From Candidatus Omnitrophota bacterium (GTDB taxonomy: Bacteria > Omnitrophota > Gorgyraeia > JAHJTE01): 64,000 bases of DNA. Below, in pieces: positions 13,229-58,464 of the stretch. Numbering within the stretch: the first letter of the stretch is position 1; each line of letters begins with the position of its first letter. The notes beneath the pieces are model-generated. The model did no database searches. It was not told the origin of the DNA and was given only the letters and a program-made list of their open reading frames with translations. A program made the translations under genes and the position numbers. Location: NCBI GenBank assembly GCA_018830005.1, contig JAHJTE010000002.1:331809-395808 (forward strand). The letters are read 5' to 3'.

Positions 13229-13285
13229 AAATATTAAAATGTTTTTCTATTTAGATGCAGTATGCTAATAACCGCGAATTCACTT

Positions 13286-19295: not shown

Positions 19296-20780
19296 TCATA
19301 ACTGCAATAAATGATGAATAGGTAATTTTCTGTTTCTATTTAAGCTTGCATAGCGTTGCGTGATTATATCCTCTGCTTTTTTTCGAAATTCAATTAATTC
19401 TTCGATATCCAAATTATAAGGTTTGATCCATGGCTTATCGCTAGCTTGATGAAAATTCTCGGCATATAAAATATCCTGATCAGGAACTAATAACAACTTA
19501 TTCCTAATAACTTCATCATATAATCTAGAGCCAGGAAGCGGGACGGCGGTATGGATTGATATGTTATCTAAATAAAGTTTATTTATCATCTCGTAAGTTT
19601 CCCTAAGAGTATCCGAGGTTTCTTGAGGTAGGCCAATAATAAAAAAAGCCCTTACAAAAATATCCTTTTCCTTGCGCATTAGTTCAAATACCTCAAATAT
19701 TTTTTCCCTCGGCAATTTTTTTCCCATAACTTTATTTCTAATGTAATCAGAACCGCTCTCTACAGCAAAGGATATCCTTAAAAGGCCCATAGCTTTTAGC
19801 GCCTCTAGAATATCCCTATCAAAAAACTTTATAGAGATACCGTTTGGTGTATCAACATAGATCTTGAGATTCTTTTTCCTAATCTTACTAGCGAGTTCAA
19901 GTACTCTACTTTTATCCATGCTAAAGTTATCATCTATTATTGAAAAATAATTAATACCATATTCATTATATAGGTATTCTATTTCTTTTAGGCAATTCTC
20001 AGCTGATCTGTATCTTATTTCTTTTCCATGAAGAAGATGCATAGCACAAAAATTACATCCCATAGGACAGCTACGACTTGAAAGGAAGGGGAATCTGTAT
20101 TTAAGGCTATATCCTTTGGGGTTGTGCCAATGCCTTTCCCACTTCTCTGACTCAATCTCATAATCCTGCAAATTTAAGAGTTCCCAGGCTGGATAGGGTA
20201 AAATGTCTAAATCATTAATGAAGTTTCTTTTAGGGTTGACTCTTATCCGGCCATCTCTGTAACATATTCCATCTATGTCTGATAGTGAACCACCATTGAA
20301 AATACAATTTAACAACTGAAGGAAAGACTCCTCCCCTTCACCAATAATAATAAAATCAACACAATCAAAGCGTTCAAGAATTTCCTTATAAAATACGGTC
20401 GGCTGGATACCACCTAGGACAACCGGAAGAGAACTATCTATCTTTTTTAAAACGGAACTTATGAAGATAGTGGCTGGAAATTTACCCGAAAATAAACAAC
20501 TAATACCAACAAGATCGGGTTTGTAATCATTGTAGGTGTCAGTAATTGTTTGCTCGACAAAAGCATCGAGATCATCTTTAAAAGATAAATTATGTCTTTT
20601 CAGAAGAGCTGGAATATCTAGATAAAATATATTATAACGGTTCTTCTTTAGAGTAGCTGCCAAAGAAAGCAAGCCTACCGAAGGATAAGGCTCCTCTCTC
20701 AAATTGCTAACCATTGAATCATTCGAGATATTACTGGATCTAACGTGAGAATTAATTAATAAAATCTTCTTACTATTCAT
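19296..20780 (-). CDS. Cobalamin-binding (class B) radical SAM enzyme
   Basis: N-terminal B12-binding-like domain (LVGISCLF…VVLGGIQPT), then SRSCPMGCNFC (CxxxCxxC). Confidence 0.75.
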   Translation of the reverse strand: MNSKKILLINSHVRSSNISNDSMVSNLREEPYPSVGLLSLAATLKKNRYNIFYLDIPALLKRHNLSFKDDLDAFVEQTITDTYNDYKPDLVGISCLFSGKFPATIFISSVLKKIDSSLPVVLGGIQPTVFYKEILERFDCVDFIIIGEGEESFLQLLNCIFNGGSLSDIDGICYRDGRIRVNPKRNFINDLDILPYPAWELLNLQDYEIESEKWERHWHNPKGYSLKYRFPFLSSRSCPMGCNFCAMHLLHGKEIRYRSAENCLKEIEYLYNEYGINYFSIIDDNFSMDKSRVLELASKIRKKNLKIYVDTPNGISIKFFDRDILEALKAMGLLRISFAVESGSDYIRNKVMGKKLPREKIFEVFELMRKEKDIFVRAFFIIGLPQETSDTLRETYEMINKLYLDNISIHTAVPLPGSRLYDEVIRNKLLLVPDQDILYAENFHQASDKPWIKPYNLDIEELIEFRKKAEDIITQRYASLNRNRKLPIHHLLQL

Positions 20781-21688: not shown

Positions 21689-22488
21689 AACTCTCCTACA
21701 TATCTTTTCATCTCATTCTCAATTAGTTTTGCATTAGAGATCTTCTTTTTTACCTCAGACAATCTATCTTGCTTAGGCGATCCATCATTACCTATACCAA
21801 CATGCCAAAGATGTCTACAGGTCTTTATATTAATAAAGGCGGGGAGACATTTAGTTAATTTCTTAATGCTATCAAAAATTATCTCAGGATCATCTACGAT
21901 TGATTCACTGACTAGCCCCATCGCCTTTGTTACGTCTGGAATCTTCCAATTTCTTCTTACCTCAATAGGCGTCAAAATAGACAAGTTGTTATCTTCACAA
22001 ACATACAAAATTGGCAATTTATTCTTTTCCGCAAAACCATAAGAGGATAATACATAATCCTCTTCGGCTGCTGCATCTCCGAAATAAACAACAGTAGGCT
22101 TTCCAGAGGCTAGGCAATAACCTGTAGCTAAAGGGATGTTTTCCCCTATAAGGCCATTATGGCTATACATAGGAATATTCAGATCTTTGATGCAAGGCGA
22201 TCCCCCCCTACCTTCACAACAGCCCGATCTTCTTCCTAATAACTCGTCAATGAGACGCTCGATATCGCCTCCGTACGACAAATAGGTTGAATGACAACGA
22301 TGTTGAGTAAAAACTGCGTAACCTTCTGTAAGAGCAGACATAGTTGCAGAAATTGCTTCTTGGCCTACTGACAAATAAACTACTCCGGGAACAAGGTTCT
22401 TTTTTACAGCTTCAACTACCTGAAACTCAAAATAACGAATAAGGCACATCTTCCTAAATATCTCTTCTAAATTTAGCTTTTTTTCCAT
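21661..22488 (-). CDS. TPP-dependent dehydrogenase E1 alpha-like subunit
   Basis: MCLIRYFEFQVVEAV…GVVYLSVGQEA resembles the pyruvate/acetoin dehydrogenase E1-alpha N-terminus; a GDAAAEE TPP-binding region. Confidence 0.65.
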   Translation of the reverse strand: MEKKLNLEEIFRKMCLIRYFEFQVVEAVKKNLVPGVVYLSVGQEAISATMSALTEGYAVFTQHRCHSTYLSYGGDIERLIDELLGRRSGCCEGRGGSPCIKDLNIPMYSHNGLIGENIPLATGYCLASGKPTVVYFGDAAAEEDYVLSSYGFAEKNKLPILYVCEDNNLSILTPIEVRRNWKIPDVTKAMGLVSESIVDDPEIIFDSIKKLTKCLPAFINIKTCRHLWHVGIGNDGSPKQDRLSEVKKKISNAKLIENEMKRYVGELWRKQLQGQ

Positions 22489-23627
22489 TTCTTATATAGG
22501 ATTAAAATATCACCATCTGTTAAAGATCTATTTTTTGCGGCATTATTTTTGCAAAACTTTAGGAATCCTCTCAGCTCTTCCTCTTCTAAATCAAGCTTTA
22601 GCTTTTTTAGTTTTTGCTCTAAGGCGCGCCTACCAGATAATTTTCCAATAACGAGTTGATAACCATCCAGGCCTATGTCTTGTGGATTTAAAAGCTGATA
22701 TGTTCGATTATATTTAATCATGCCATCTTGATGAATCCCTGATTCATGCAGGAATGCATTTGCCCCTACGATTGCCTTATTGGATGCAATTTTTATCCCC
22801 GATAATTCTTCAACTAACTTACTTGTATTTATAATTTCTTTCGTATTTATATAGCTTATATCTTCTTTAAATACATCTTCCCTGGCCTTTAGCGCCATAA
22901 TAACTTCTTCGCAAGCGGCATTTCCAACACGCTCTCCTATCCCATTAATGGTAACCTCTACTTGTCTGGCGCCTGCCTTTATCCCTGCCAAGGTATTTGC
23001 TACCGCCAATCCTAAATCATTGTGACAATGGGTGGAGACAACGATATCTTCTGGTAATTCCTTCGTGATGCTACCAATTAAAAAAGCATATTCTTCAGGA
23101 GTCGCATAACCAACTGTATCGGGCAGCTCAATTGTCAATGCACCTGCTTGCACGCAGGACTTACATACTTGTATAAGATAATCCAATTCGCTGCGAGTTG
23201 AATCCTCCGCAGCAAACTCGACATCTTGCCTAAAGCTCTTTGCATATTGAACCATTTCCACGCAAAGATCCAAAGCCTGCTGAGGAGAGATATTAAATTT
23301 ATGTTTCAAATGTATATCAGAAGTGCCCATTACAACTTGAATACGCCCTTTTTTTGCCTCGCCTAGAGCTTCTGCTGCCACCTCTATATCCTTTTTATGC
23401 GCCCTACACATGGTACTGATGATAATTGAATTTCCGAATTCCTTCGCGACAAGATTTACGCCTTTAGCATCTTGCTCAGAAGCTATAGGAAATCCTGCCT
23501 CAATAATAGGAAGTCCTAGCTTCACCAACTGCTCAGCGATCCTCAGCTTTTCTTCTGGTAAAAAATTTACGCCTGCTGCTTGCTCGCCGTCTCTTAAAGT
23601 AATATCATTTATTAACAAGTCTTTCAT
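22473..23627 (-). CDS. 2-isopropylmalate / homocitrate / citramalate synthase family (DRE-TIM metallolyase), short form without the LeuA regulatory domain
   Basis: LRDGEQ motif and the [16 protein letters not shown] signature; 384 aa. Confidence 0.75.
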
Positions 23628-24813
23628 TTCTCTTCACCACCTTCATATTCTTTGTCTCCATTAATACCTTCTTCATCTTTTCACAAGCCTCTTCAATAAT
23701 TTCAGGCCGCCTCATATAACAAAGTCTTATATAACCCTCCCCATATTCGCCAAAACAAGTTCCAGGAAGCAACACAACATTGCACTTCTCTAAAGCAAAA
23801 TCAGCAAACTGAGTACTGCTCATGCCTGTGCCTTTTATATTTGCAAAAACATAACAGGCGCCTTCCGGAAGACAACAAGAAACTCCCGGAATCTCATTTA
23901 ACTTCTTTACTATTAAATCCCTTAAGGATTTGTACTGCCTAATCCTATCCTCAATAACACTCTGGTCACCCTTTAAGGCACTTACACCCCCATATTGTAT
24001 AAAAGGAGGTGTACAAGAATAAATCGTTTGAAAAAGGCTGCCCATTTTTTCTATGACCTCTTTTGGACCTATTGCATAACCCAGGCGCCATCCAGGCATT
24101 GAATAGTTTTTGGCAAATCCATTTAGGATAATCGTACGCTCTTGACATTTATCAAGAGAGCTAGGGGAAAAATGCTCACCGTCGTAAATAATCTTAGAAT
24201 AAATTTCATCGCTTAAAAGATAGGTATCGTTATCTTTGGCCACTTTAGCAATAGCCTCCATCTCTTCCTTAGTCAGCACTGCGCCTGTGGGATTCTGGGG
24301 TGAATTTACAATTATCAGACGAGTCTTATCGGTAATCCGCTTTTCTATTGCATCGGCTTGTATATGGAATTTACTCTCTTCTTTAATAGGCACGCCAACC
24401 TTCTTTATGCCAGTATAATTCGTCACAGCCAGATAGGTGGAAAAGCCTGGGTCTGGATAAAGCACCTCTTCTCCCGGATTTGCCACGCAGCGCATTACAA
24501 AATCTATGATGCCATTTGCCGGCATAACCACTACTTGATCCAACTCTGGTTTAAAACCCAACGTCTCATGGGCATATTCACAGATGGCTTCCTTTAACTC
24601 AGGGATGCCTGCTGAATCAACATAATGAGTACAGCCATTATCTAAGGCCTCTTTAGTTGCATCTATTATGTGCTGATGAGCCCTAAAATCTGAATCGCCA
24701 ATCTCAAAATGAAAAATTTTCTTTCCAGCCTTCTCCATCTTCCTTATTTTAGCCATAAGCTTAAACATTGGCTGACCGATTAGTCCTTGCGTAATCTTAG
24801 CTAGTTTTTTCAT
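23605..24813 (-). CDS. Class I/II PLP aminotransferase (aspartate/aromatic aminotransferase-like)
   Basis: 402 aa; NSPQNPTG motif, SFAKNY (PLP-Lys region), and a GYIR C-terminal region. Confidence 0.75.
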   Translation of the reverse strand: MKKLAKITQGLIGQPMFKLMAKIRKMEKAGKKIFHFEIGDSDFRAHQHIIDATKEALDNGCTHYVDSAGIPELKEAICEYAHETLGFKPELDQVVVMPANGIIDFVMRCVANPGEEVLYPDPGFSTYLAVTNYTGIKKVGVPIKEESKFHIQADAIEKRITDKTRLIIVNSPQNPTGAVLTKEEMEAIAKVAKDNDTYLLSDEIYSKIIYDGEHFSPSSLDKCQERTIILNGFAKNYSMPGWRLGYAIGPKEVIEKMGSLFQTIYSCTPPFIQYGGVSALKGDQSVIEDRIRQYKSLRDLIVKKLNEIPGVSCCLPEGACYVFANIKGTGMSSTQFADFALEKCNVVLLPGTCFGEYGEGYIRLCYMRRPEIIEEACEKMKKVLMETKNMKVVKRNERLVNK

Positions 24814-25596: not shown

Positions 25597-26124
25597 TTAA
25601 TCGAACTCACTTCTTTTCCCTAAAATAATGATTTTTAATGCTATTATAATTTTTGAAATCCATAAAACAGTCGGCTTTCCAATATAATATTTACCATCTT
25701 TAAATATTATCTGACCACTGTTAATTAATCTATTCGTTCTCTTTTGGAATATCTCCTTGGCGCTGTATCGATTTAGAAGCTCTCCTAACTTGAGTCCGTC
25801 TCCTGCCTCATATAATTCCCTTAATATTCTTATACGACGTGCTGTCTCGCCTAAATTTATAAAATGAAAATAACAATAACCCAGACAACCGTAGCCTATC
25901 AAATTTATAACAAAAATATCACTAAGGCCTTCTAAGGAAACCTCTGGCCTAAAGGAGATAAAAGAGGTGAAAAATAAGAGATACAAAATGCCAATAACAA
26001 ATCCCAAATAAATTGAGTTCAATAATCCTATTTGTTTAAAATATCTAAAACTAAGTAGTTGTACTAAGACATTTATAATAAGGCAAATAACTGGCATAAA
26101 AACTAGAAAATAATCAAAAGTCAT
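25597..26124 (-). CDS. Small membrane protein with a C-terminal soluble domain (paralog 1)
   Basis: 175 aa; about 3 N-terminal TM helices; the C-terminal domain (…DGKYYIGKPT…) is similar to the neighbouring 26133..26645 product. Confidence 0.4.
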   Translation of the reverse strand: MTFDYFLVFMPVICLIINVLVQLLSFRYFKQIGLLNSIYLGFVIGILYLLFFTSFISFRPEVSLEGLSDIFVINLIGYGCLGYCYFHFINLGETARRIRILRELYEAGDGLKLGELLNRYSAKEIFQKRTNRLINSGQIIFKDGKYYIGKPTVLWISKIIIALKIIILGKRSEFD

Positions 26125-26132
26125 CTTATGAT

Positions 26133-26645
26133 CTATCCACCTTTTTCTAATCTGAGTAACTTACGATAAAAAACAAACAGCTTTGCTACTAAGGCTCCTG
26201 TTGCTCTTAACTTGTATTTGCCATTGCCAACGTAGATCATCTTCGCGGTAAGAAGATCATTCAATCTCGGCAATACTAAAACATCGTCATTCATATTTTG
26301 CTGTAACATATTTTCATCCAAGCCATTAGGACCTGCCTCATGGACTTTCATAACCATGACCAGAGAGGGACTATCTACCTCTAATCCTGAATAGGTCACA
26401 ATATAGGCTAATGTCAAAGAAATAAAAAGAATGCAAAGTTTTAGATATCCTAGAGGTAAGACTCTAGCGAAAATATCAGCTTGATTTGAAGATGTCCTCA
26501 AAAACAAAATCCCAACTAGCAAGATAGATAGAAAAATCAAAAACAATACATTAGTTTGATTTTTTGGGATACGAATCTTCCAAATTGCAAGATGAATAAA
26601 AAATGCTATTACAAATAGAACTATGCCATATAATAAAACGCTCAT
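26133..26645 (-). CDS. Small membrane protein with a C-terminal soluble domain (paralog 2)
   Basis: 170 aa; same architecture as the neighbouring 25597..26124 product (…EAGPNGLDENML…NGKYKLRATG…). Confidence 0.4.
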   Translation of the reverse strand: MSVLLYGIVLFVIAFFIHLAIWKIRIPKNQTNVLFLIFLSILLVGILFLRTSSNQADIFARVLPLGYLKLCILFISLTLAYIVTYSGLEVDSPSLVMVMKVHEAGPNGLDENMLQQNMNDDVLVLPRLNDLLTAKMIYVGNGKYKLRATGALVAKLFVFYRKLLRLEKGG

Positions 26646-26649
26646 AAAA

Positions 26650-27369
26650 TCAAAACTTCCCTTTAGTTATCGTTGCCTTATTAGCTTCTTTCCAGCTCAT
26701 ATAGAAATCATTTAATTTTTTAAACTCAAAGTAAGTCTGCAATGATGCTCTTGCCTCTGATACGACAAATCCAGAATACCCAGCCCTCCTAATCAAATCC
26801 AACATATATAAACTATGATCTGGCGATTGATGCAAGTGTGTATGCCATAAATCGCTACCAAAGACATAACCGGTCAAATGAATATGGGAGGCATCTTTTA
26901 TAACCGGTAAAAATTCCTCTTCATATACACCGCAACATTCTAACTGTAAATGCTCCACATCCAGACATCTGCCCAACCCAAATCGCCTCATAAATTTCAA
27001 AGGTTCATGCACGCTATGGGTATTTTCAACGCAGAGCTTAGTCTTAATGGGTGTAAAAATCTTTGTTATATCCAGCCATTCATCCTCCCAATAAATATTA
27101 TGAAAGACAACGATTTTTGCGCCGATTGCTTTCACTAACTCTGATAATTTATCTGGAGTTCCTAAGTCATGCGGTGCATGTACAGCATAGCTAAATGAAA
27201 ATCTCCTGCACAAAGCTATGAGGACATCTAGATTCCCTAGCATCTGTCCGTTTAGATAAAGTTCAACTCCACAGATGCCGGCCTTTTCAATATCGGATAA
27301 GATTCTCAGCTCTGGGGCAGACTTTACTGCCAAAACAATATCATTAATTTTATTCATAACTCTAGACAA
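26650..27369 (-). CDS. Sugar phosphate isomerase/epimerase (xylose-isomerase-like TIM barrel)
   Basis: 239 aa; the pattern of His/Glu/Asp metal ligands fits AP-endonuclease-2 / xylose isomerase-like barrels. Moderate confidence from composition and context. Confidence 0.5.
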   Translation of the reverse strand: MSRVMNKINDIVLAVKSAPELRILSDIEKAGICGVELYLNGQMLGNLDVLIALCRRFSFSYAVHAPHDLGTPDKLSELVKAIGAKIVVFHNIYWEDEWLDITKIFTPIKTKLCVENTHSVHEPLKFMRRFGLGRCLDVEHLQLECCGVYEEEFLPVIKDASHIHLTGYVFGSDLWHTHLHQSPDHSLYMLDLIRRAGYSGFVVSEARASLQTYFEFKKLNDFYMSWKEANKATITKGKF

Positions 27370-27389: not shown

Positions 27390-28157
27390 CTAACCAGATG
27401 AGCGTCTTATTGCCGTCAATGAATCTTTGGCAAAACCTGGTTCGCCTGCCTTATCTTTTTTAAAATAGAAATCTCTCAACAAGCGCAAATAACCACTAGC
27501 AACATGTAGAAGTGAAGGAAAACTAACAGCCTTGGAAATACCGTGTTCCCTTACGTCAAGCCTATATGGGACTTCAGCGAAGAGATAGCCTCGCTTTGCA
27601 GCTCTTATCAGTATGTCTGTCTGAAAGAAAAAGCCATTACTCCTAAATTTGAGCTCTTTTAAAATGGATTTTCTATAAAGTATGGTGCCATTTGTGTAAT
27701 GGAAGTTAACAACAAAAGTAGTATTAATAATAAAACGATAAATGAAAGAGAGAGCATTCCTGAATAAAGATCTTGCGTTTTTGTTAAAGACAAAAGGAAT
27801 AACTATATCTACCTGTTCAAGCAATTTGTAGTAACGCAAAATTTCCAAAGGGTCATTTTCATTATCCCCAGGCATCCAAAGCACAAAATCACCACCTGCC
27901 TTATCCACCCCATCCCAGAACGATGTCCCTACGCCTTTGGGCTTAGAGTGCGAAAGAATTTTAACCTTAGGATTCTTCTCCTTTAATATCTTTACTAAAT
28001 CTTCTGTCTTATCACAACTTCCGTCGTTAACTACAATAATCTCACCCTCAATATTAAAAACCTCAAAGGCCCTCAGGATATTCTCAATAGTTGCGGTGAT
28101 ATTCTTTTCTTCGTTAAGTGCAGTTACAACTACTGATACGCCTTTAACTTTATCCAT
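27390..28157 (-). CDS. GT2 glycosyltransferase, polyprenyl-phosphate sugar synthase-like
   Basis: VVVTALNEE…VNDGSCDKT…WMPGDNEND, typical of DPM-synthase-type GT2. Confidence 0.7.
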   Translation of the reverse strand: MDKVKGVSVVVTALNEEKNITATIENILRAFEVFNIEGEIIVVNDGSCDKTEDLVKILKEKNPKVKILSHSKPKGVGTSFWDGVDKAGGDFVLWMPGDNENDPLEILRYYKLLEQVDIVIPFVFNKNARSLFRNALSFIYRFIINTTFVVNFHYTNGTILYRKSILKELKFRSNGFFFQTDILIRAAKRGYLFAEVPYRLDVREHGISKAVSFPSLLHVASGYLRLLRDFYFKKDKAGEPGFAKDSLTAIRRSSG

Positions 28158-28178: not shown

Positions 28179-29270
28179 TTAAACAAAATTAACATGCTCA
28201 GGTGGATTTTTTAACTGCCAAACAAACTCATTTATAGCGTGAGTCCTACAATTTGAGTAACATTTATTAACATCAATTTGTGCAACTTTTTCCACTATCT
28301 TCCAGTATCTATCACTTCTGATTATGTCTTTGAAAGACTCCTTAGTTAAATCACCCATGCGATATTCTTTCTCCATGCTAGTATCCTTATCAAAACACAT
28401 ACCGCAAGGATATATTCTTCCCTCACCGCTTGAATATAACAAAAATGGCACGCCAAGGCATTGTTTATAACCTCTTTCTCCTCTATTTGCGATCTTCCAC
28501 CATTTTATTATCACATTATAGTTCTGCTGACTTTCACTCTCTGCCTCTTTCAGTACTTTTTGGAAATTCTCATATTCAGCAAGTTTACTATATACACCAA
28601 TATCGCTTTCTACTGTATCACTGCACTGTTTTACGACCAAATAATCTACCCCTAATTCCTTACCAAGTTTTGCTAAAGGAACTACCTGATCTACATTTGT
28701 AGGAGTTAAAACCATCTGAAGACCGACAGTGACACCTAATTTCTTTCTTTTTTTAGTCTGGACACAGAATCTTATTTTCTCAACTGCCGTAGAGAATTCC
28801 TTGCTACGATGAACTCTTAGATAAGCTACATCACTAGCAGCGCTGATGTTAAATCTTATCCAACTTAAATGTTCTAATGCCTCCTGGCCTGCTTGGCCTG
28901 TATCAAATAAAATACCATTCGTACCCATAGAGACATCTACGCCAGCTCTTTTAGCCTCTACTATTGCTTCGTAGACATGGGGGTTCAGTAATGGCTCGCC
29001 TTCCCCAATAAGCCCAAGAGACCTGACCCCTGCCTCAGGAGCTTCTCTTACATATCTTAAGAGGGCTTCTCGTGGGAAGAATTTATCAGCACCTTTCTTA
29101 TAAAAATTTCCCTGGAGCACTCCAAAACAGTACTCGCATCTAATATTACAACCTTTGCTTAATCCTACATCTATATGTATGGGAACAATCCTCTTGCCAT
29201 TGAGCCAGTCAGTAACTCTATCCAGGTGCCAATAAAGTTTATGTCCATCCATTATATATTTATCAATCAC
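28179..29270 (-). CDS. Radical SAM enzyme with a C-terminal SPASM/twitch-like Cys cluster (paralog 1)
   Basis: GCNIRCEYC (CxxxCxxC) near the N-terminus; a C-terminal C…GEGRIYPCGMC auxiliary-cluster-like motif; the tail ends …NPPEHVNFV. Confidence 0.7.
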   Translation of the reverse strand: MIDKYIMDGHKLYWHLDRVTDWLNGKRIVPIHIDVGLSKGCNIRCEYCFGVLQGNFYKKGADKFFPREALLRYVREAPEAGVRSLGLIGEGEPLLNPHVYEAIVEAKRAGVDVSMGTNGILFDTGQAGQEALEHLSWIRFNISAASDVAYLRVHRSKEFSTAVEKIRFCVQTKKRKKLGVTVGLQMVLTPTNVDQVVPLAKLGKELGVDYLVVKQCSDTVESDIGVYSKLAEYENFQKVLKEAESESQQNYNVIIKWWKIANRGERGYKQCLGVPFLLYSSGEGRIYPCGMCFDKDTSMEKEYRMGDLTKESFKDIIRSDRYWKIVEKVAQIDVNKCYSNCRTHAINEFVWQLKNPPEHVNFV

Positions 29271-29283
29271 GATTCAATCTCCG

Positions 29284-30183
29284 TCAAATTTTGGCTTTTA
29301 TCCTATCGCAATATTCTCTTACGGCGTCTTGCCAAGGCCTTAAGCTGGGGATTTTCTCAGATTTCAGCGGTGTATTAGTATTTTTTATACAGGTAAAAGG
29401 GAAATCTTTATAAGATGCCTTCTGAATCTCAGCATCCAATTTAAGACATTTAATAATCTCTTTCATTAATTCAAACAATGATGCCTTGCCTTGGTTAGCT
29501 ATATGATAAAGCCCAAAGGCAGAGCTTGACCTTAGAATACGCAAGATCTCCCCTGCTACATCTCTACTGTATGTTGGCGATGAAATAATATCAGCAGCAA
29601 TCTTTAAAGCCTTTTGCCCTTGTTTTATTCTTTGTAGCATCTTTTCAACGAATTGATTGTCTTTTGTAGTTTCACCAAACAATACAGATACTCTAAAAAT
29701 ATAATATGTCTTCGCTATTGCCTGTATGAGACAATCAGCACCATACTTTGTAAGCCCATATAAATTTAGAGGATGAGGCGCATCACTTTCAACATAATAA
29801 TCCTGTTTTTCATCATTAAAAACAGCATCTGTACTAAAGTGAACCAGCAAAAATCCGTATTCATTTGAAAGTTCAGCTAACGCTTTAGGATATAGGGTAT
29901 TTACTGCCAGGGTATCTTGCGGGTCATCTGCGCAAGGATCAAGGCCTAAGGAGGCGACAGTATTTAAAACTACCTCTGGCTTATTTTCTTTAATAAGTGC
30001 GTGAACCTGTCTTGAGTCTCTTGCATCAAAATCCTTGCTATTTTTCCCGATGACCTCAAAATCATTGTTTGTAAAAACCTCAGTTAAAGCAAGTCCCATT
30101 TTGCCTGTGGAACCAAGCAATAAGACTCTTCCTTTTAAAGGATTAGGAAGGCCTATCCCTGTGGATAATACCCTTTTACTCAT
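29284..30183 (-). CDS. NAD(P)-dependent sugar 4-reductase, RmlD (dTDP-4-dehydrorhamnose reductase)-like
   Basis: LLLGSTGKMG Rossmann motif and YGLTK catalytic motif; 299 aa. Confidence 0.65.
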   Translation of the reverse strand: MSKRVLSTGIGLPNPLKGRVLLLGSTGKMGLALTEVFTNNDFEVIGKNSKDFDARDSRQVHALIKENKPEVVLNTVASLGLDPCADDPQDTLAVNTLYPKALAELSNEYGFLLVHFSTDAVFNDEKQDYYVESDAPHPLNLYGLTKYGADCLIQAIAKTYYIFRVSVLFGETTKDNQFVEKMLQRIKQGQKALKIAADIISSPTYSRDVAGEILRILRSSSAFGLYHIANQGKASLFELMKEIIKCLKLDAEIQKASYKDFPFTCIKNTNTPLKSEKIPSLRPWQDAVREYCDRIKAKI

Positions 30184-31087
30184 ACCTGAGTGCCTCCTTA
30201 ACTGCGCATCTAATAGCTTTTGAGGAAATCCCGTAATAATCTCTCATGCCTTTCCTATTTTTAATCTTATGTATAAATTCATTACTTATGCCCATTTTCT
30301 TTAATCTAATGCTGAGGCCTTGCTCAAGAATCCAATCAGCAATGATACTACCTAGCCCGCCATCTATGAAATGTTCCTCAACCGTTATTACGGTATGTAT
30401 ATTCTTTAGCTCCTTAAGAAGAGCTGGGAAATCCAGAGGACAAATCTTAGGAACAGATATTACCTTCACTGTCCCCTTAAAACCTTCTACTGCAGAGATT
30501 ACTTCCTCCCCAATTGAACCGTGAAATAAAACTGCCACTTCCTTGCCTTCTCTTATTACTATAGGTTTCTCTATTGTCTTTGGCGGCCTTTTGTGAATCC
30601 TAGGCTCACCGCTTTTGGCAAGGCGTATATAAACCGGTAACTTACTAGAAAAAGCATACTCAGCACATTTTTCTGCCTCAAGCGGATCTGAAGGAGAAAG
30701 TATGACTAAATTAGGTAAACTCCTTGCAATTTGTATATCCTCAATAGAATAATGTGTGACACCTTGCGGTGCATACGTCAGTCCACTTCCAATCCCCACT
30801 AAAGTAATCGGTAATCTCTGATAACAGATATCATTTCTAACCTGTTCATAGCACCTGAAAAGAAGAAAAGGAATGATATTGTATAAAAAGATCTTATACC
30901 CGGCAAGCGCTAAGCCAGCGGAAAAACTTATCATATTCTGTTCGGCAACGCCAAGGTTTAAGAATCTATCTGGAAACGTCTTTTTAAATTCATCCAAGAC
31001 CCCGAAGCCAGCGTCTCCGGTTATTAAGAAGATTCTTTTATTCTCTCTGGCGCAATCTGTTATTCTACTGATTACACTATCTCTCAT
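30176..31087 (-). CDS. Transketolase, C-terminal section (split transketolase subunit B)
   Basis: Pyrimidine-binding and C-terminal transketolase domains (VAEQNM…); 4-bp overlap with the N-terminal-section gene. Confidence 0.8.
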   Translation of the reverse strand: MRDSVISRITDCARENKRIFLITGDAGFGVLDEFKKTFPDRFLNLGVAEQNMISFSAGLALAGYKIFLYNIIPFLLFRCYEQVRNDICYQRLPITLVGIGSGLTYAPQGVTHYSIEDIQIARSLPNLVILSPSDPLEAEKCAEYAFSSKLPVYIRLAKSGEPRIHKRPPKTIEKPIVIREGKEVAVLFHGSIGEEVISAVEGFKGTVKVISVPKICPLDFPALLKELKNIHTVITVEEHFIDGGLGSIIADWILEQGLSIRLKKMGISNEFIHKIKNRKGMRDYYGISSKAIRCAVKEALRYE

Positions 31088-31899
31088 TTTGCCTTAGGGC
31101 ATAAATTCTTAAGCGCTTCTCTTTTTAAATCATCCGTAACAATAAAATAATGCCATTTATTCTCATTTTCCATGAAGGGAACGCCTTTGCCTTTCACTGT
31201 CTGAGCTATTATTATTTTAGGCCTTCCTTTAGAAGGCTCTTTTAGGGCTTTAAAAATCTGCGTAAAATTATGCCCATCAACTTTATGTGTCTGCCATCCA
31301 AACGCCTCCCATTTTTCAATAATAGGCTCAAAATAGCATATCTCTGTTGGCCGGCCGTAACCTTGAAGATTGTTATAATCTAGGATTGCAGTAAGATTAT
31401 CTACTCCTAATTTTGAAGCAAATAAGGCACCTTCCCAGATAGAACCCTCTTGTGATTCTCCGTCACCAATCAAAGTAAAAATTCTTCTCTTATCTTTTTT
31501 GAGTTTATAGCCGTAGGCCATTCCGATTGCCATATTAAACCCATGCCCTAAAGAACCACAGGATGCCTCAATCGGCTTTGCGCTGAATCTATCAAGATGA
31601 GCAGGTAATGTTCCATCATTTTGAAAATATCTCTTTAAGGTATCCTGGCTAATAAACTTCTTTAAAGCAAAAACAGCATAAAGCGCCATAGCTGCATGCG
31701 CTTTACTAAGTATGAATATATCTCTGTTTTTCCAATCCCCTAGATCTATTTTAAGTTCATGGAAATAAAGAGCTACTAGTAAATCCACGCACGATAAAGA
31801 TGATCCTACATGTGCGCTTCCTGATCTACAGGCAACATCTAGAATCAATTTTCTTGCTTCATCTGCGATTCTTTTAAATTTAGTTTCTAGTCCTGGCAT
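31084..31899 (-). CDS. Transketolase, N-terminal section (split transketolase subunit A)
   Basis: GHVGSSLS and GDGESQEG TPP-binding motifs. Confidence 0.8.
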   Translation of the reverse strand: MPGLETKFKRIADEARKLILDVACRSGSAHVGSSLSCVDLLVALYFHELKIDLGDWKNRDIFILSKAHAAMALYAVFALKKFISQDTLKRYFQNDGTLPAHLDRFSAKPIEASCGSLGHGFNMAIGMAYGYKLKKDKRRIFTLIGDGESQEGSIWEGALFASKLGVDNLTAILDYNNLQGYGRPTEICYFEPIIEKWEAFGWQTHKVDGHNFTQIFKALKEPSKGRPKIIIAQTVKGKGVPFMENENKWHYFIVTDDLKREALKNLCPKAK

Positions 31900-31919
31900 A
31901 TTTGTTTTAAAGAAAACTT

Positions 31920-33008
31920 TTATACAAAATTTACGTGTTCTGGCGGATGTTTTAATCTCCAGAGATACCTATTTACTTCATCCAAACGGCAAACTTCGCG
32001 ACACTCATCTATATTCCATTTGCTCTTCATCATCTTACGAATTGCCTTTCTTTTCTTTCCCTTCCATATCTTACTAAATGTTGCTTTGTTAATATTGCCA
32101 TAGCGAAAACGTTCCTCTCCTAAAAAGCTGCTACAGGCATATAAGTCGCCATTTGAAGCAAGATAGGCCCAAAAAGGAAGTCCTAAACATTTCCTGTAAG
32201 GTCTCGGTTGCGTGATCTTTGACATAGTATGTTTTCTAAATATTATTCTAAAATCTTCTCTTTTATATTTCTTCAGGCTCTCTTCTAAGGATAGCAATCT
32301 CTTGTAATCAAGCTTGGATTTAAGACGGTTAATACTTAAAGGGTGTTGCGAATAGGGCTTTATAATAAGGTAATCAGCTCCAATGTCCCTTAAGATCTTT
32401 GCTACTTTTTCTACCTCATTATAATTCTCATTTAAAAGCAGAAATTGAACACCGATAGTGCAGGCGTATCCCATTTTCTTTTTTAATCTAACCGCCTCTT
32501 TAATATTATTGATAACCTTGTTAAAATCGTTTTGCTTAGTGCGGTGAATCAAAGAATAGGTCTTTGCACTTCCAGCGTTAAGGCTTATCCTCAGCCAGCT
32601 AAGTGAAGAAAGAATCTGCCCTGAGATATGTTTAGTTAACAATACGCCATTTGTAGTAATGGCTACATCTAGACCATTTTTCTTTGCGTATTTTACTAAG
32701 GAGGCTAGGTCTTTATTAAGCAAGGGCTCCCCCTCACCGGCAAACATTATGCTTTTTACTCCTCTGGCGGCAATGTCTTTTATAAATCCTTTCAGGATTT
32801 TGGTGTCTAGGCGGCATGCCTTATATCCTAAATAGTCTAGGCCGCAAAAAATACAACGATGATTACATCCACCATAAGGCGTAATCTCCATATAAATAGG
32901 ATAGATATCTTTTCCTAGCAGCCAATCAGAAACGCGTTGCGGATGATAGATTAATTTTTGACTTTCAATTCTATATTCATCCATTGTTTTTAATAAAATA
33001 ATCAACAA
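31920..33008 (-). CDS. Radical SAM enzyme with a SPASM/twitch-like C-terminus (paralog 2)
   Basis: GGCNHRCIFC cluster motif; C…NGDLYACSSF auxiliary motif; the identical C-terminal tail …HPPEHVNFV to the 28179..29270 product. The likely true start is the internal MDEYRIE Met at 32984. Confidence 0.7.
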   Translation of the reverse strand: MLIILLKTMDEYRIESQKLIYHPQRVSDWLLGKDIYPIYMEITPYGGCNHRCIFCGLDYLGYKACRLDTKILKGFIKDIAARGVKSIMFAGEGEPLLNKDLASLVKYAKKNGLDVAITTNGVLLTKHISGQILSSLSWLRISLNAGSAKTYSLIHRTKQNDFNKVINNIKEAVRLKKKMGYACTIGVQFLLLNENYNEVEKVAKILRDIGADYLIIKPYSQHPLSINRLKSKLDYKRLLSLEESLKKYKREDFRIIFRKHTMSKITQPRPYRKCLGLPFWAYLASNGDLYACSSFLGEERFRYGNINKATFSKIWKGKKRKAIRKMMKSKWNIDECREVCRLDEVNRYLWRLKHPPEHVNFV

Positions 33009-33537
33009 TTAAATGACAGATTGCAAGATGGGTAATCTCTGCGTATCCATAAGAAGAAGACGGAACATAAAAATTTATATCCCCTAATGTCCTCAAGGGA
33101 TTACCTTTTTCAAATCCAGAGAGGGTAATTATAAAGCAGCCTCGACCCCTTACCTCTTCTGTGGCATTTAAAATATTTTTTGATTTTCCAGAGCTACTTA
33201 TAGAAAATAAAATATCGCCCTTTCTAGAGAGCATCTCTAGAGGCTTTTGAAATACTGCCTCGTATCCCAAATCATTACTCAAACAAGTAAGCAAACTAGC
33301 ATCATTAAAGACAATGGCTCTCACCTTGGCGTTTTTCAAGAAATCCGTGGCAATATGGCTGGCAATAGATGCGCTTCCGCCATTGCCGATAAGCATAATC
33401 TTATTCTCTTTTTTATCTAGTGCTGTAATTAAACTGGTTATTTCAGAAATTGCCTTATCAAAAGATATAATCTTACCCATCTTTTCAGTTATCTCTATTT
33501 TTGAAAAAAGATCTGATAATTCTTTAAAATAGTGCAT
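32977..33537 (-). CDS. gmhA: Sedoheptulose-7-phosphate isomerase (SIS domain)
   Basis: 186 aa SIS-domain protein with GNGGSA…SSSGKS motifs, typical of GmhA/LpcA. Confidence 0.8.
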   Translation of the reverse strand: MHYFKELSDLFSKIEITEKMGKIISFDKAISEITSLITALDKKENKIMLIGNGGSASIASHIATDFLKNAKVRAIVFNDASLLTCLSNDLGYEAVFQKPLEMLSRKGDILFSISSSGKSKNILNATEEVRGRGCFIITLSGFEKGNPLRTLGDINFYVPSSSYGYAEITHLAICHLIVDYFIKNNG

Positions 33538-33549
33538 TTTATTTTCCTC

Positions 33550-35085
33550 TTATTTAAGAAGAGTTAATATATATTTAAATAAAGGCCCTAGCTCTACAGA
33601 AGAGCGATTTCCCACGATCAAAACCTTCATTGCCCCTGCGGCATTGCCTATAAAACCTACGACTTGCATTGGATTATCATTCAGTACCCAAGGTGATGTC
33701 AGGGAAAAATAGGCATCTCCTGCCCCAATCCTATCTACCACCTCTTTAGAGAAAACCGGAATCTCACTAAAACCATCTTTTTTCGAATATATCAAAGAAC
33801 CTCTGTGGCCTCGCGTAATAATTATCTTTTCACATTTCAGCTTCTTGCTTATTTCAAGAATTAATCTTTCTAAGTTAGAAAATTTATCATGACATGCAAG
33901 CCTTATTTCAGGTTCATCAATACAGATATAGTCAGCTCTAGGAAATTTCGTAATAAGATTAAAACCGAGGTTTGCGCTATTGGTCTGGACATTAACAGCT
34001 AAATGCGGCGCATTCTTAGAAAGCACATCCACTACCTTAGGTGTAATCAATCCATGGCCAAAATCAGCCACCAGCACCATATCAAATTCCCTAAGCTGAG
34101 ACTTTAAATAGCCACATATCTCATTTTCTAATTCTCTCGGCAAATGATTTGCATCTTCTAGGTAGCAAATTTCAAATAATTTATTCAAAAAATTAGGGTC
34201 AACAAATCTACGTTTAACTACCGTAGGGGCTTCTTTATTATAATAAAACTTGGTTTTTATATTTTTCTTGAGATGACTCTTAATAAAATCTGCGTAGTCA
34301 TTTTTCTTGCCGATACAACTAAGCAAAGTTACCTTCTTAGAAAACCCTGCTAAGTGATTAGCAGCAGCTAAAGCGCCACCTGCGAATGTCTCCTCATTTA
34401 AGAATCTAGTAGCAATTATGTTGTCCTTGGCAGACTTTCCCATACCCACACAGTAGTGATATTCATCTATGATTATGTCTCCTATGACAAGGATCTTTAT
34501 ATCTTGTATTTTCTTGAATCGATCAATTATATCTTTGGCAGGATACCGCCTCTTAAATTTATTAAGAAAATCTCTTGCCTCTTCCGAATAAGGAGCAAGA
34601 AATGTATTTATAATATTGGAAGAACTAAAGGTAATTTCATCAGTAAAATGAAGCATGCCGCCAACAGATTTAACTACTGCCTCTTCTTCGTAGATCTTGC
34701 CTGTAATATCGTCTTCCTTTCTTGCATAATCGCTGCCCTTAACATAGAAGTGCGGTTTTATCTTTTTCAAGGTCTCGACTGCTGTTGGCCATTCATTTAT
34801 TGCTACAAAATCAACTGCCTCTATAGCTGCAATGCTTTCTGCACGTAATTGCTGATTAAATATGGGCCTGCCCGGACCCCTATTCACATGTTCATCGCGT
34901 GTTAACGTAACTACCAGAATATCCCCCTTTTCCTTTGCCGCTTCGAAATGCTTCAGATGTCCTGGATGTAGAAGATCAAATACGCCATGGCAATGAACTA
35001 TTCTTTTGCCCTTTTTCCTAAAACCTTCTAGGATTTTGCTAAGTTCATTGAGTGTTTTAATTTTTGAATCAATATTTTTACCCAT
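33550..35085 (-). CDS. Bifunctional heptose-phosphate nucleotidyltransferase / PfkB-family sugar kinase (HldE-like, but with inverted domain order)
   Basis: An N-terminal cytidylyltransferase-like domain with HCHGVFDLLHPGH (HxGH); a C-terminal ribokinase/PfkB domain with DRIGAGDAY (GAGD anion hole). Confidence 0.7.
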   Translation of the reverse strand: MGKNIDSKIKTLNELSKILEGFRKKGKRIVHCHGVFDLLHPGHLKHFEAAKEKGDILVVTLTRDEHVNRGPGRPIFNQQLRAESIAAIEAVDFVAINEWPTAVETLKKIKPHFYVKGSDYARKEDDITGKIYEEEAVVKSVGGMLHFTDEITFSSSNIINTFLAPYSEEARDFLNKFKRRYPAKDIIDRFKKIQDIKILVIGDIIIDEYHYCVGMGKSAKDNIIATRFLNEETFAGGALAAANHLAGFSKKVTLLSCIGKKNDYADFIKSHLKKNIKTKFYYNKEAPTVVKRRFVDPNFLNKLFEICYLEDANHLPRELENEICGYLKSQLREFDMVLVADFGHGLITPKVVDVLSKNAPHLAVNVQTNSANLGFNLITKFPRADYICIDEPEIRLACHDKFSNLERLILEISKKLKCEKIIITRGHRGSLIYSKKDGFSEIPVFSKEVVDRIGAGDAYFSLTSPWVLNDNPMQVVGFIGNAAGAMKVLIVGNRSSVELGPLFKYILTLLK

Positions 35086-35095
35086 AACTATCCTT

Positions 35096-36091
35096 TTATT
35101 TAGAGAGATACTTAAACCACTCTTTCGTGGTCTCTCCTATCTTCTCCGGAGTCCATACCGGAGCATCCTTCCAGTAATCTATGTTTTCTAAAATCTTATC
35201 GACTCCCGCTTGAAATGAAACTTGAGGTTGCCAGGAAAGTTTCTCGCTAATCTTATGTATATCCGCCCACGTGCAATCAGGCTCACCCGGCCTTTTAGGG
35301 ATATGTACAACCTCCCCGCCTAAAATGGAAACCAGCTTATTTACGCTCTGTGGATTGCCTGTGCCTACATTGAAAATTCCTGTTTTTACCTTAGAGCTTG
35401 CAGCCCTAACAAAGGCACTTACAACATCAGAGACATAGATAAAATCTCTTTTTTGCTCACCGTCACCAACTACTGTAAAAGGCATAGACTTTAACTTTTG
35501 TGCTAAAAATACTCCAAAAACAGCTCCGTAGGTACCGGATGTCCTTGAACGCGGACCGTAGACATTAAATAATCTTAATGATATAACCGGCATCTTATAT
35601 ACTTTACCCCAATGAAAAACTATTTGTTCTCCTAAATATTTTGTTAATGCATAAGGATATTGGGGACTAATCTTAGCTGTCTCTTTAGTAGGCAAAACCT
35701 TGGCTATACCGTAACAAGAAGAAGATGCGGCATAAATCAACTTTTTAACTTTAGAAACTCTAGAGGCCTCAGCCACACAGGCTGTACCTGTAACATTTGA
35801 ATCATAGTATTTTATGGGATTAACTATTGAAGGAACAATATCAGCTAATGCTCCAAGATGAAATACTATATCTATTCCTTTAAAATATTCTATTATCTTA
35901 TCAAGTTTTGTTATGTCCTCTTTAATCAAGGTAAAATTCTTATTTTTTTTCTGATGAGCTAAGTTCTCAGCCCTACCAGTTGAAAAGTTATCAATTACAG
36001 TAACCTTATTGCCCTCTAAAAGCAAGCAGTCAACTAAATGACTACCTATAAAACCTGCCCCACCTGTAACTAAACACCTTTTCATCTTCAT
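35096..36091 (-). CDS. NAD-dependent epimerase/dehydratase (UDP-glucuronate decarboxylase / heptose epimerase-like extended SDR)
   Basis: LVTGGAGFIGSHL and YALTK catalytic motif. It is the first gene of the long operon. Confidence 0.75.
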   Translation of the reverse strand: MKMKRCLVTGGAGFIGSHLVDCLLLEGNKVTVIDNFSTGRAENLAHQKKNKNFTLIKEDITKLDKIIEYFKGIDIVFHLGALADIVPSIVNPIKYYDSNVTGTACVAEASRVSKVKKLIYAASSSCYGIAKVLPTKETAKISPQYPYALTKYLGEQIVFHWGKVYKMPVISLRLFNVYGPRSRTSGTYGAVFGVFLAQKLKSMPFTVVGDGEQKRDFIYVSDVVSAFVRAASSKVKTGIFNVGTGNPQSVNKLVSILGGEVVHIPKRPGEPDCTWADIHKISEKLSWQPQVSFQAGVDKILENIDYWKDAPVWTPEKIGETTKEWFKYLSK

Positions 36092-51699: not shown

Positions 51700-51739
51700 A
51701 TCAGGCCTCCAACGAATTAGTCAATTTATCGATTTTTTA

Positions 51740-53448: not shown

Positions 53449-53454
53449 TGTCCT

Positions 53455-55383: not shown

Positions 55384-55424
55384 ATTTAGCCTCCGTAAAA
55401 TTAAATCAGCGCCATCCCAAGCTA

Positions 55425-56183: not shown

Positions 56184-56184
56184 G

Positions 56185-58437: not shown

Positions 58438-58464
58438 ACTAACTCCGGTTTAAGCTATTATTAT

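Follow-up and report, generated by a model that had tools for sequence, protein, structure and literature searches.

Nucleotide-heptoses are building blocks of lipopolysaccharides, capsules and S-layers, and they act as innate-immune agonists. In the bifunctional enzyme HldE, the kinase domain is N-terminal and the adenylyltransferase domain is C-terminal. Here we describe a gene cassette in a stretch of 64,000 nucleotides from a Candidatus Omnitrophota bacterium (GenBank assembly GCA_018830005.1, contig JAHJTE010000002.1, positions 331,809 to 395,808; the whole of this stretch is called the window below). The cassette encodes a 511-aa protein with the same two domain families in the opposite order, which we call reverse HldE, together with a GmhA-like isomerase and a transketolase-like enzyme split over two genes, TktN and TktC. 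Our reading, to which we give a probability of roughly 0.55, is that a heptose-activation module is combined here with a transketolase that would work as a tailoring enzyme.

Heptose nucleotidyltransferases have been sorted into mono-domain, kinase/nucleotidyltransferase and isomerase/kinase/nucleotidyltransferase types with the motif (F/L)XXGXSTT, and the reversed architecture goes unmentioned in two commentaries on the cross-kingdom survey of these enzymes by Tang et al. 2024 (PMC11573728, PMC11461863). Three superfamilies of thiamine diphosphate (ThDP) enzymes branch keto-sugars: E1-like and YerE-like enzymes do so with 2-oxo-acid donors, and split-gene transketolases have been proposed for miharamycin and amipurimycin, with only 13 candidate branching transketolases, all of them from Streptomycetes (PMC12247030). 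Our literature searches found neither the present gene combination nor the reversed domain order described. None of the parts of the cassette falls outside known superfamilies, and there are precedents for the chemistry; the reversed HldE family, a GmhA with a His/Asp/Glu/His site, the altered transketolase-like family and the association of these across phyla appear to be undescribed.

The reverse HldE protein and its family

The gene for reverse HldE lies on the minus strand at 33550..35085. An earlier reading made without database searches, referred to here as the sequence-only reading, had placed a nucleotidyltransferase HxGH motif at the N-terminus of the product and a PfkB kinase GAGD motif at the C-terminus, and the domain annotation agrees. 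CTP_transf_like (PF01467) matches residues 33-159 (2e-16), with the N-terminal domain scoring 60.9 bits against a gathering cut-off of 21, and PfkB matches residues 197-496 (1.3e-24). The motifs fall in HCHGVFDLLHPGH at residues 31-43 and in GAGD at residues 454-457, and both are conserved among 41 family members; within the HxGH motif (residues 40-43), the family alignment has His40 in 40/41, Gly42 in 41/41 and His43 in 38/41. The two domain families, the two motifs and the presence of GmhA- and GmhB-like partners are shared with HldE (also HldA and HldC), and the order of the domains is the reverse of that in HldE.

Each half is closest to its HldE counterpart in profile searches. For the kinase half, rfaE_dom_I is the best PfkB profile (113.7 bits, followed by ribokinase at 44), and for the nucleotidyltransferase half the best is rfaE_dom_II (103 bits). 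We had considered a TagD-type glycerol-3-phosphate cytidylyltransferase, which would have nothing to do with heptose, as the identity of the N-terminal domain; it was rejected, with a score of 36 bits. The AlphaFold model of the 511-aa protein is confident (pLDDT 92.6), and when it was searched with Foldseek the seven best matches were all HldA of B. cenocepacia (E 5e-25 to 4e-23, TM 0.80-0.86), with ribokinases following at 3e-16.

The protein departs from HldE in sequence as well as in domain order. The heptose nucleotidyltransferase (HENase) motif (F/L)XXGXSTT is unmatched: the 511-aa protein reads DEITFSSS there, with FSSS at a place where relatives read xSTT or ISTT, and the consensus of the nucleotidyltransferase-kinase family at this motif is F-S-S-(S/T). 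In 27 of the 41 family members, the position that is Arg in nucleotide-promiscuous enzymes is Phe. The genomic setting differs too, in that a GalE-like short-chain dehydrogenase/reductase (SDR) takes the place of HldD, and ThDP and radical S-adenosylmethionine (radical-SAM) tailoring genes take that of heptosyltransferases.

The family is very large. A search at E<=1e-10 gives more than 7,800 proteins, and nearly all of the top 120 have a length of 511 aa. The best 150 cluster representatives from a single all-against-all search, every one of the nucleotidyltransferase-kinase type, show 34-55% identity, are mostly ~500-520 aa long and align over nearly their full length, and therefore have the nucleotidyltransferase-then-kinase order in common. 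Full-length relatives occur in both bacteria and archaea, in at least 581 species-level genomes. Among the bacterial carriers are Omnitrophota, Elusimicrobiota, Chloroflexota, Planctomycetota, Verrucomicrobiota, Bdellovibrionota, Nitrospinota, Bacteroidota and candidate-phyla-radiation lineages, as well as proteobacteria, in which one record, Azospirillum sp. INR13, is not a metagenome-assembled genome (MAG); archaeal carriers include Nitrosotalea, Nanoarchaeota, Methanomassiliicoccales and Methanomicrobia. The reversed order is that of a fusion separate from HldE, and this fusion is the hallmark of a very large family whose members vary little in length. The suggestion in the sequence-only reading of an independently evolved bifunctional enzyme thus holds as far as a separate fusion is concerned, and fails if it is taken to mean something peculiar to this genome. 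Further fusions in two relatives link the family with the heptose pathway: in one (P0126) a GmhB-type haloacid dehalogenase-like (HAD) domain precedes the nucleotidyltransferase and PfkB domains, and in the other (P0171) the same two domains are followed by SIS.

The GmhA-like isomerase and the GmhB phosphatase

Directly downstream of reverse HldE is a gene for a SIS isomerase of 186 aa (32977..33537, minus strand; SIS_2 1.8e-13), whose best NCBIfam and PDB matches are all phosphoheptose isomerases. The gene was thus correctly recognized as GmhA-like in the sequence-only reading, which had also set it next to the transketolase genes; a radical-SAM gene (rSAM1) lies between them. The window isomerase has the SIS fold, the phosphate loop and both His residues in common with GmhA. 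The metal/catalytic positions are His/Asp/Glu/His, compared with His/Glu/Gln/His in GmhA, a tetrad that we take from the structures of the B. pseudomallei and E. coli enzymes. In the 32 cassette members both His are invariant, and Glu is replaced by Asp in 31/32 and Gln by Glu in 31/32, which on the alignment is a coordinated, subfamily-specific change. The enzyme probably still works as an isomerase, though perhaps with a stereochemical outcome other than that of GmhA.

No GmhB-type HAD was found in the window when 12 HAD probes were compared with all six-frame open reading frames (ORFs), as the sequence-only reading had already observed, and none was called in the sequence that we recovered past the low-coordinate end of the window. 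The description of the locus as a self-contained supply line therefore does not stand. In relatives, free-standing HADs beside the nucleotidyltransferase-kinase gene carry DRDG, TNQSG and CxCRKP motifs and score 174 bits against the GmhB model NF006506 (cut-off 178). The simplest reading of these genes is a nucleotide-heptose activation module around reverse HldE, for which GmhB would be encoded elsewhere in the genome or be dispensable.

An altered split transketolase

Pfam confirms that the two halves of the transketolase are separate genes, as the sequence-only reading had them. TktN, the PP-domain subunit of a transketolase-like ThDP enzyme (271 aa, 31084..31899, minus strand), matches Transketolase_N (4.6e-35), and TktC, the subunit with the Pyr and C domains (303 aa, 30176..31087, minus strand), matches Transket_pyr (6.4e-26) and Transketolase_C (6.2e-12). 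The two genes overlap by 4 nt and are therefore coupled. They share the two-gene, alpha2beta2-type architecture and the ThDP, metal and donor residues of the split transketolase of C. hydrogenoformans, with TktN scoring 213 bits to its N chain (6yak) and TktC 154 bits to its C chain (6yaj). The best NCBIfam profile of TktC is dxs (137.9 bits), followed by transketolase (129.6).

The two ends of the active site have fared differently. All of the canonical ThDP/metal and donor residues are present in the pair (E. coli H26, H66, H100, H261 and H473): TktN keeps the GDG...N motif and four donor-site His, and TktC keeps the cofactor Glu, His473 and an N-terminal Met-Arg that provides the equivalent of Arg358. 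In transketolase structures, residues of the Ser385/His461/Asp469/Arg520 type contact sugar-phosphate substrates at the phosphate and at the C2 hydroxyl. When TktC was aligned to the C. hydrogenoformans C chain and E. coli DXS, only the Arg358 equivalent of the canonical acceptor/phosphate set (R358, S385, H461, D469, R520) was seen to be retained. DLSKST is replaced by DAGFGV with a one-residue deletion, so that the Ser385 equivalent is gone; ATHAG is replaced by GIGSG and His461 is lost; GEDG is replaced by APQG and Asp469 is lost; and LGRSG is replaced by LAKSG, with Lys for Arg520. Ser385, His461 and Asp469 are absent from 19/19 aligned cassette relatives in which the donor His are retained, and across the C-subunit family the position of Arg520 is Lys or Thr. 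In TktN, the canonical GSLGQG reads GSLGHG in every cassette member. In a subgroup of TktN (L005, L013, L025 and L037; L numbers denote individual loci), the equivalent of His100 is Cys, with GCM or GCV for GHP.

As an independent test, we scanned metagenomes with the TktC family as anchor. Among 70 metagenomic relatives with the altered signature, His461 occurs in none and Asp469 in one. Where altered-signature loci extended over at least 8 kb, two or more sugar-tailoring partner families were present in 36/37 and the nucleotidyltransferase-kinase gene in 24/37. Four TktC matches without the deletion (L141, L152, L155 and L160) have His461 in three cases, one of them with Asp469 too, and have zero or one partner family, so canonical-like split transketolases occur outside sugar cassettes. 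The altered enzymes are also found apart from the heptose-type genes: no SIS or nucleotidyltransferase-kinase gene lies within 10 kb on either side of the altered transketolase in L130, or in the 9-10 kb upstream in L146 and L157, whose contigs end shortly past TktC. Some sit instead with an RmlA-like nucleotidyltransferase, a dehydratase-like SDR and a DegT aminotransferase. On the residue pattern and the genomic context, we rejected a housekeeping transketolase. The altered TktC family can be recognized from sequence (one-residue deletion, no His461, no Asp469) and so offers many candidates for biochemical tests and for tertiary-alcohol biocatalysis.

A repeated gene order accompanies the pair, in which a dehydratase-like SDR or a radical-SAM gene is followed by TktN and TktC and then by a zinc-dependent alcohol dehydrogenase or an RmlD-like reductase. 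The order in the window (rSAM1, TktN, TktC, RmlD-like reductase) puts the split genes inside a sugar-tailoring cluster and beside a candidate ketone-maker, as in the class proposed for miharamycin and amipurimycin. The radical-SAM/SPASM protein rSAM1 (362 aa from a TTG start, 31920..33008, minus strand; Radical_SAM 1.1e-17, SPASM 2.6e-8) has as its closest solved structures the sugar-modifying BlsE and DesII, both weak matches, and in related loci it fills the slot that is otherwise held by an SDR ahead of the ThDP genes. It is a candidate anaerobic oxidase or dehydratase yielding a keto-sugar. Downstream of TktC and overlapping it by 8 nt is the gene for an RmlD-like nucleoside diphosphate (NDP)-ketosugar reductase (299 aa, 29284..30183, minus strand; RmlD_sub_bind 3.4e-59), which scores 191 bits against the TIGR01214 rmlD cut-off of 224.

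Conservation of the cassette

The reverse HldE gene is preceded in the window by SDRa, a GalE-like SDR of 331 aa (35096..36091, minus strand; Pfam Epimerase 2.7e-59). Among PDB entries it matches 6dnt best (191 bits) and GalE and WbgU types next, with HldD (3sxp) at only 84 bits; it is probably a C4 epimerase or an oxidase acting on an NDP-sugar.

We compared 80 genome loci around nucleotidyltransferase-kinase relatives with the window proteins, ORF by ORF. In the 46 well-flanked loci (at least 2.5 kb upstream and at least 8 kb downstream), an SDRa ortholog (>=380 bits) is present in 27, in 19 of them directly upstream of the nucleotidyltransferase-kinase gene, and a SIS gene is present in 28. 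The Tkt-like pair is found in 19/46, an rSAM1/2-like gene in 13/46 and a GmhB-like HAD in 7/46. The genes at 36091-32977 form a conserved, putative activation module that is found in many phyla.

In a separate clustering of the neighbor genes of 44 well-flanked loci, the Tkt-like pair occurs in 18 loci and an E1-like alpha/beta pair in 14, with both present in a single locus, so that the two pairs nearly exclude each other. Frequent neighbors are DegT aminotransferases (18/44), a 4,6-dehydratase-like SDR (224 bits to dTDP-glucose dehydratase), a methyltransferase, a zinc-dependent alcohol dehydrogenase, an APH-like kinase and a HAD-like protein; DegT genes also adjoin many of the transketolase-anchored loci. 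In a Patescibacteria MAG (GCA_035506195.1, locus L001, 14165-15991), a 608-aa beta subunit with Transket_pyr and Transketolase_C domains is fused to a glycosyltransferase of family GT2, and its alpha partner is of the E1_dh type. In many loci, a HAD-like protein (~210 aa, no Pfam match) and an APH/choline-kinase-like kinase (~360 aa) are encoded directly 5' of TktN and TktC, for example in L087, L088, L108 and L115 at ~2.5 to 1 kb upstream of TktN. The window has neither of the two, which might serve in donor preparation.

Proposed pathway

From the observed gene content, family relations, residue patterns and conserved context, we infer the following substrates and products for every step. 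The SIS isomerase would turn a ketose phosphate, most simply sedoheptulose-7-phosphate from central metabolism, into heptose-7-phosphate, which the PfkB domain of reverse HldE would phosphorylate at O-1. A GmhB-type phosphatase encoded outside the window would strip the 7-phosphate, and the N-terminal nucleotidyltransferase domain would then form an NDP-beta-heptose that SDRa would epimerize or oxidize. The TktN/TktC enzyme is predicted to keep transketolase-type donor chemistry (dihydroxyethyl-ThDP) with a rebuilt acceptor pocket, and to add a two-carbon hydroxyacetyl branch or extension to a nucleotide-sugar keto intermediate. The C2-branched product would then be reduced, in keeping with the position of TktN/TktC between the radical-SAM enzyme and the RmlD-like reductase, loaded on polyprenyl phosphate by a small GT2 enzyme and transferred by PMT_2 (GT-C) enzymes encoded downstream.

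The nucleotide-heptose route is well supported because both halves of the 511-aa protein are closest to HldE and because GmhB- and GmhA-type proteins are fused to its relatives or adjoin them, and we regard heptose activation by SDRa, reverse HldE and the GmhA-like isomerase as probable. The sequence-only reading had proposed a dedicated pathway feeding nucleotide-heptose to the glycan operon with the transketolase as its source of sedoheptulose-7-phosphate. The activation pair formed by the isomerase and the 511-aa protein survives from that proposal, backed by the rfaE and gmhA profiles, the HldA structures and the fusions, and the transketolase supply does not. A supply role is unlikely because canonical residues of the sugar-phosphate site are lost, because E1-type enzymes substitute for the pair, because an E1-type beta subunit is fused to a GT2, and because the altered enzyme occurs in clusters with no heptose genes in the available sequence. 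We therefore lean, with somewhat less assurance than for the activation module, to TktN/TktC as a tailoring enzyme and not a sedoheptulose-7-phosphate supplier, most likely a keto-sugar C2-branching enzyme.

The same step, in which a ThDP enzyme forms a carbon-carbon bond to an NDP-keto-sugar, is carried out by the YerE-like and alpha-KADH2 (E1-like) enzymes of yersiniose, erwiniose, caryophyllose, aldgarose and the kibdelomycin sugar. Some related cassettes have an E1-like pair at the position where others have the transketolase-like one, and the window operon itself encodes both an E1-like and a YerE-like enzyme. Both kinds belong to other ThDP superfamilies and are expected to use 2-oxo-acid donors such as pyruvate, whereas a ketol donor is expected for TktN/TktC. 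The split transketolases of the Streptomyces miharamycin and amipurimycin clusters, which have been proposed to add a hydroxyacetyl branch, we liken to TktN/TktC by gene context, as they likewise sit in a sugar-tailoring cluster beside oxidoreductases (PMC12247030). The present family differs from them in being found in Omnitrophota, in many other phyla and in archaea, and in lying in cell-surface glycan loci rather than in actinomycete antibiotic clusters; from canonical transketolases it differs by the missing acceptor and phosphate residues of TktC. More tentatively, and less likely than not, the cassettes, with SDRa, reverse HldE, the GmhA variant with its His/Asp/Glu/His site and a transketolase-like or E1-like ThDP enzyme, may represent a very widespread, undescribed route to heptose-derived surface sugars that are C2-branched or chain-extended (nine-carbon), spread over many bacterial phyla and several archaeal lineages. 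If that is true, these would be the first transketolases beyond actinomycete antibiotic clusters to accept an NDP-keto-sugar, and anaerobes would be using radical-SAM enzymes in place of the NAD-dependent dehydratases of other organisms. In metabolic reconstructions of uncultured lineages, it would be wrong to enter the cassette genes under pentose-phosphate transketolase or under the standard ADP-heptose pathway.

Several observations weigh against this reading. To our knowledge, these families have no biochemically characterized member. All of the equivalog cut-offs are missed: the 511-aa protein scores 158.8 bits against the HldE equivalog NF008454 (cut-off 521), and its halves stay below the cut-offs of rfaE_dom_I (113.7 against 345) and rfaE_dom_II (103 against 181.5); the SIS protein reaches 105.3 bits against the TIGR00441 gmhA cut-off of 209.45, half of the equivalog score; and TktN reaches 227.7 bits against the transketolase cut-off of 488. 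The actual substrates may thus be other than those of the textbook pathway. Phosphate binding by the Arg358 equivalent, which is conserved, and by the Lys at position 520 is still conceivable, and the window TktC is its own subtype inside the altered class. The role given to rSAM1 rests on position and on weak similarity (43 bits to BlsE), and neither a GmhB nor an obvious 4,6-dehydratase adjoins the transketolase in the window. All of the cassette-type SIS loci (19/19) have a ThDP pair nearby, as a precursor-supply model also predicts. Finally, the branching of a ketone by split transketolases is undemonstrated in vitro, even for the Streptomyces enzymes (PMC12247030).

Alternative explanations

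The 19/19 association speaks for the idea that the split transketolase is a dedicated supplier of sedoheptulose-7-phosphate for the GmhA-like isomerase and reverse HldE. This idea also draws on the closeness of TktN to a biochemically active split transketolase with all donor His retained, on the tight packing of the transketolase, SIS and nucleotidyltransferase-kinase genes in one operon, and on the fact that duplicated genes of primary metabolism are common in biosynthetic clusters. Alphaproteobacteria and Planctomycetes that bear the cassette normally have a housekeeping transketolase, which we count against it, and the C-subunit family lacks the very residues that a sugar-phosphate acceptor would contact (Ser385, His461 and Asp469, with Lys or Thr for Arg520). 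An E1-type enzyme, which takes the slot in 14/44 loci, uses 2-oxo-acids and is not expected to yield sedoheptulose-7-phosphate, altered transketolases occur with no SIS or nucleotidyltransferase-kinase gene in the available flanks, and the canonical-like split enzymes lie outside sugar cassettes. On this balance, we consider the supplier role unlikely. A related idea is that the transketolase-like enzyme makes an unusual ketose phosphate, such as octulose-8-phosphate from hexose-6-phosphate, to be activated as an NDP-octose or another higher sugar, following the logic of lincomycin biosynthesis, where LmbR, LmbN, LmbP, LmbK and LmbO make GDP-octose. The systematic His/Asp/Glu/His change in the isomerase would suit a different substrate, as would the failure of the nucleotidyltransferase-kinase protein to reach any HldE equivalog cut-off, and the conserved Arg358 equivalent and the constant company of SIS genes and a ThDP pair are in line with it too. 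However, three of the five acceptor/phosphate contacts are lost, which speaks against the usual sugar-phosphate acceptor, the E1-type replacement and the contexts without SIS or nucleotidyltransferase-kinase genes do not fit, and an oxidoreductase before the pair with a reductase after it better fits late tailoring; we hold this to be quite unlikely.

The remaining two explanations differ from our reading, one in what the transketolase makes and the other in what is activated. Two-component transketolases feed glycolyl units to the quinocarcin and naphthyridinomycin assembly lines, and by analogy the pair in the cassette could provide the activated two-carbon (glycolyl) unit with which an amino sugar is N- or O-acylated. 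The transketolase-type donor site and the frequency of DegT aminotransferases as neighbors of both the nucleotidyltransferase-kinase and the transketolase-anchored loci are compatible with this, but no lipoyl, E2-type or carrier-protein family is among the 28 commonest neighbor families and no such gene adjoins the transketolase genes in the window, so that a glycolyl donor strikes us as very improbable. It might also be that the 511-aa enzyme and the SIS protein make no heptose at all and activate another phosphosugar or polyol, for example as a CDP-alditol for a teichoic-acid-like polymer. In a PDB sequence search the N-terminal domain does match ethanolamine-phosphate cytidylyltransferase best (65 bits, with HldC at 47), the (F/L)XXGXSTT motif is not matched exactly and all heptose equivalog cut-offs are missed. 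Against this stand the higher score of rfaE_dom_II than of TagD, the lead of rfaE_dom_I over every other PfkB family, the top structural matches, which are all HldA, and the relatives fused or adjacent to GmhB-type phosphatases and GmhA-type isomerases, and we judge a non-heptose product improbable.

Layout and minor genes of the cassette

In the order of transcription, the cassette consists of SDRa, the nucleotidyltransferase-kinase, SIS, rSAM1, TktN, TktC, the RmlD-like reductase, rSAM2, a small GT2 and a TIM-barrel protein. All of the genes are long minus-strand ORFs that are spaced by 10-21 nt or overlap, and the Pfam E-values for the cassette assignments, at 1e-12 to 1e-59, are far outside chance. 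In the 185-nt gap 5' of SDRa, a scan for promoters and terminators returned nothing on the coding strand, a kind of scan that is uninformative for this phylum. The TTG start of rSAM1 makes it overlap the end of the SIS gene by 32 nt (32977-33008). Codon 9 is an ATG (MDEYRIES...) that lines up with the N-terminus of rSAM2 and would reduce the overlap to 8 nt, and we consider it the more likely start.

The second radical-SAM/SPASM protein, rSAM2 (363 aa, 28179..29270, minus strand; assigned by Pfam domain matches), is a paralog of rSAM1 with 32% identity over the full length, and both proteins end in PPEHVNFV. The two paralogs may stand in for NAD-dependent steps in an anaerobe. The small GT2 (255 aa, 27390..28157, minus strand; Glycos_transf_2 5.9e-22) is of the polyprenyl-phosphate glycosyltransferase type, has PgfS, ArnC, AglJ, PpgS and dolichyl-phosphate hexose transferase as its best NCBIfam matches, and probably loads the finished sugar on a lipid carrier. 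The last gene encodes a xylose-isomerase-like TIM-barrel protein (239 aa, 26650..27369, minus strand) with a weak AP_endonuc_2 match and a weak match to CbiR (33.9 bits), which is conserved in the Patescibacteria cassette L001 (290 bits). Between this gene and a second GT2 lie two small genes (25597-26645, minus strand) for proteins of 175 and 170 aa that look like membrane proteins and have no Pfam or NCBIfam match. We considered whether they might hide a GmhB and rejected this, as the HAD probes did not match them either.

The wider operon and its host

The cassette is the front end of a minus-strand operon, probably for a surface glycan, of more than 46 kb, which further downstream also contains the second GT2, further SDRs and two DegT aminotransferases. 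A pyruvate dehydrogenase (PDH)-E1-like alpha/beta pair is annotated at 22488-20777 (minus strand), and no E2 or E3 genes were identified among the annotated window ORFs. Directly upstream of this pair, at 22473-24813 (minus strand), are genes for a truncated 2-isopropylmalate-synthase-like enzyme of 384 aa, which has no regulatory domain and scores 497 bits (cut-off 532), and for a class I/II aminotransferase. The two may supply an extended 2-oxo-acid donor. An acetolactate-synthase-like ThDP enzyme at 19201-17411 (minus strand) matches 8rph (336 bits) and 5ahk (253 bits) ahead of true acetohydroxyacid synthases; we take these two structures to be the YerE-type enzymes JanthE and PpYerE. With the split transketolase, the E1-like and the YerE-like enzymes, the operon has all three of the reported keto-sugar-branching ThDP classes. 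The acetolactate-synthase-like gene is flanked by genes for two B12-binding radical-SAM enzymes (15948-17456 and 19296-20780, minus strand), whose best profiles are of the P-methyltransferase, BchE and HpnJ types and which probably methylate carbon atoms or modify rings.

Two adjacent PMT_2-family GT-C glycosyltransferases of 568 and 574 aa are encoded at 11504-14992 (minus strand). Their presence alongside the two small GT2 genes is suggestive of a polyprenyl-phosphate-sugar route like that of Arn, in which, as ArnC (GT2) makes undecaprenyl-phosphate-sugar for ArnT (GT-C), an ArnC/DPM1-like GT2, two PMT_2 proteins and DegT would serve from one operon; in contrast to the Arn pathway, ArnA-like and ArnD-like genes were not identified in the window operon. 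At 9789-11500 (minus strand), a GHMP kinase lies beside an NTP_transferase, with best profiles HddA (146.5 bits, cut-off 600) and HddC (146 bits, cut-off 300, tied with mannose-1-phosphate guanylyltransferase), respectively. The two may form a further activation pair of the operon, of the GDP-alpha-heptose type. In a metagenome locus (L159), SIS, E1 and Tkt genes are accompanied by a close relative of the HddA-like kinase (369 bits).

Upstream of the operon are the housekeeping genes aroA, prfA, rho and polA, along with trpC and trpD, which were read by eye from the translations. The minus strand at 49516-60156 carries Wood-Ljungdahl genes for Prismane/carbon monoxide dehydrogenase (CODH; 55383-53455), the acetyl-CoA synthase (ACS)/CODH beta subunit (51699-49516) and formate-tetrahydrofolate ligase (60156-58465). 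The presence of CODH, ACS and formate-tetrahydrofolate ligase genes indicates that the organism is an anaerobe, and the set points to an acetogen-like anaerobic lifestyle.

We could extend the window past its low-coordinate end only, where a 381-aa neighbor led to a Logan contig from SRR6514730 (L085). The continuation encodes a methyltransferase, two B12 radical-SAM enzymes, an IspD-like cytidylyltransferase, an SDR, a metallophosphatase, an ATP-grasp enzyme, NeuB and a NeuC-like/Glyphos_transf protein, and its gene content suggests a branch of this glycan locus devoted to nonulosonic acid.

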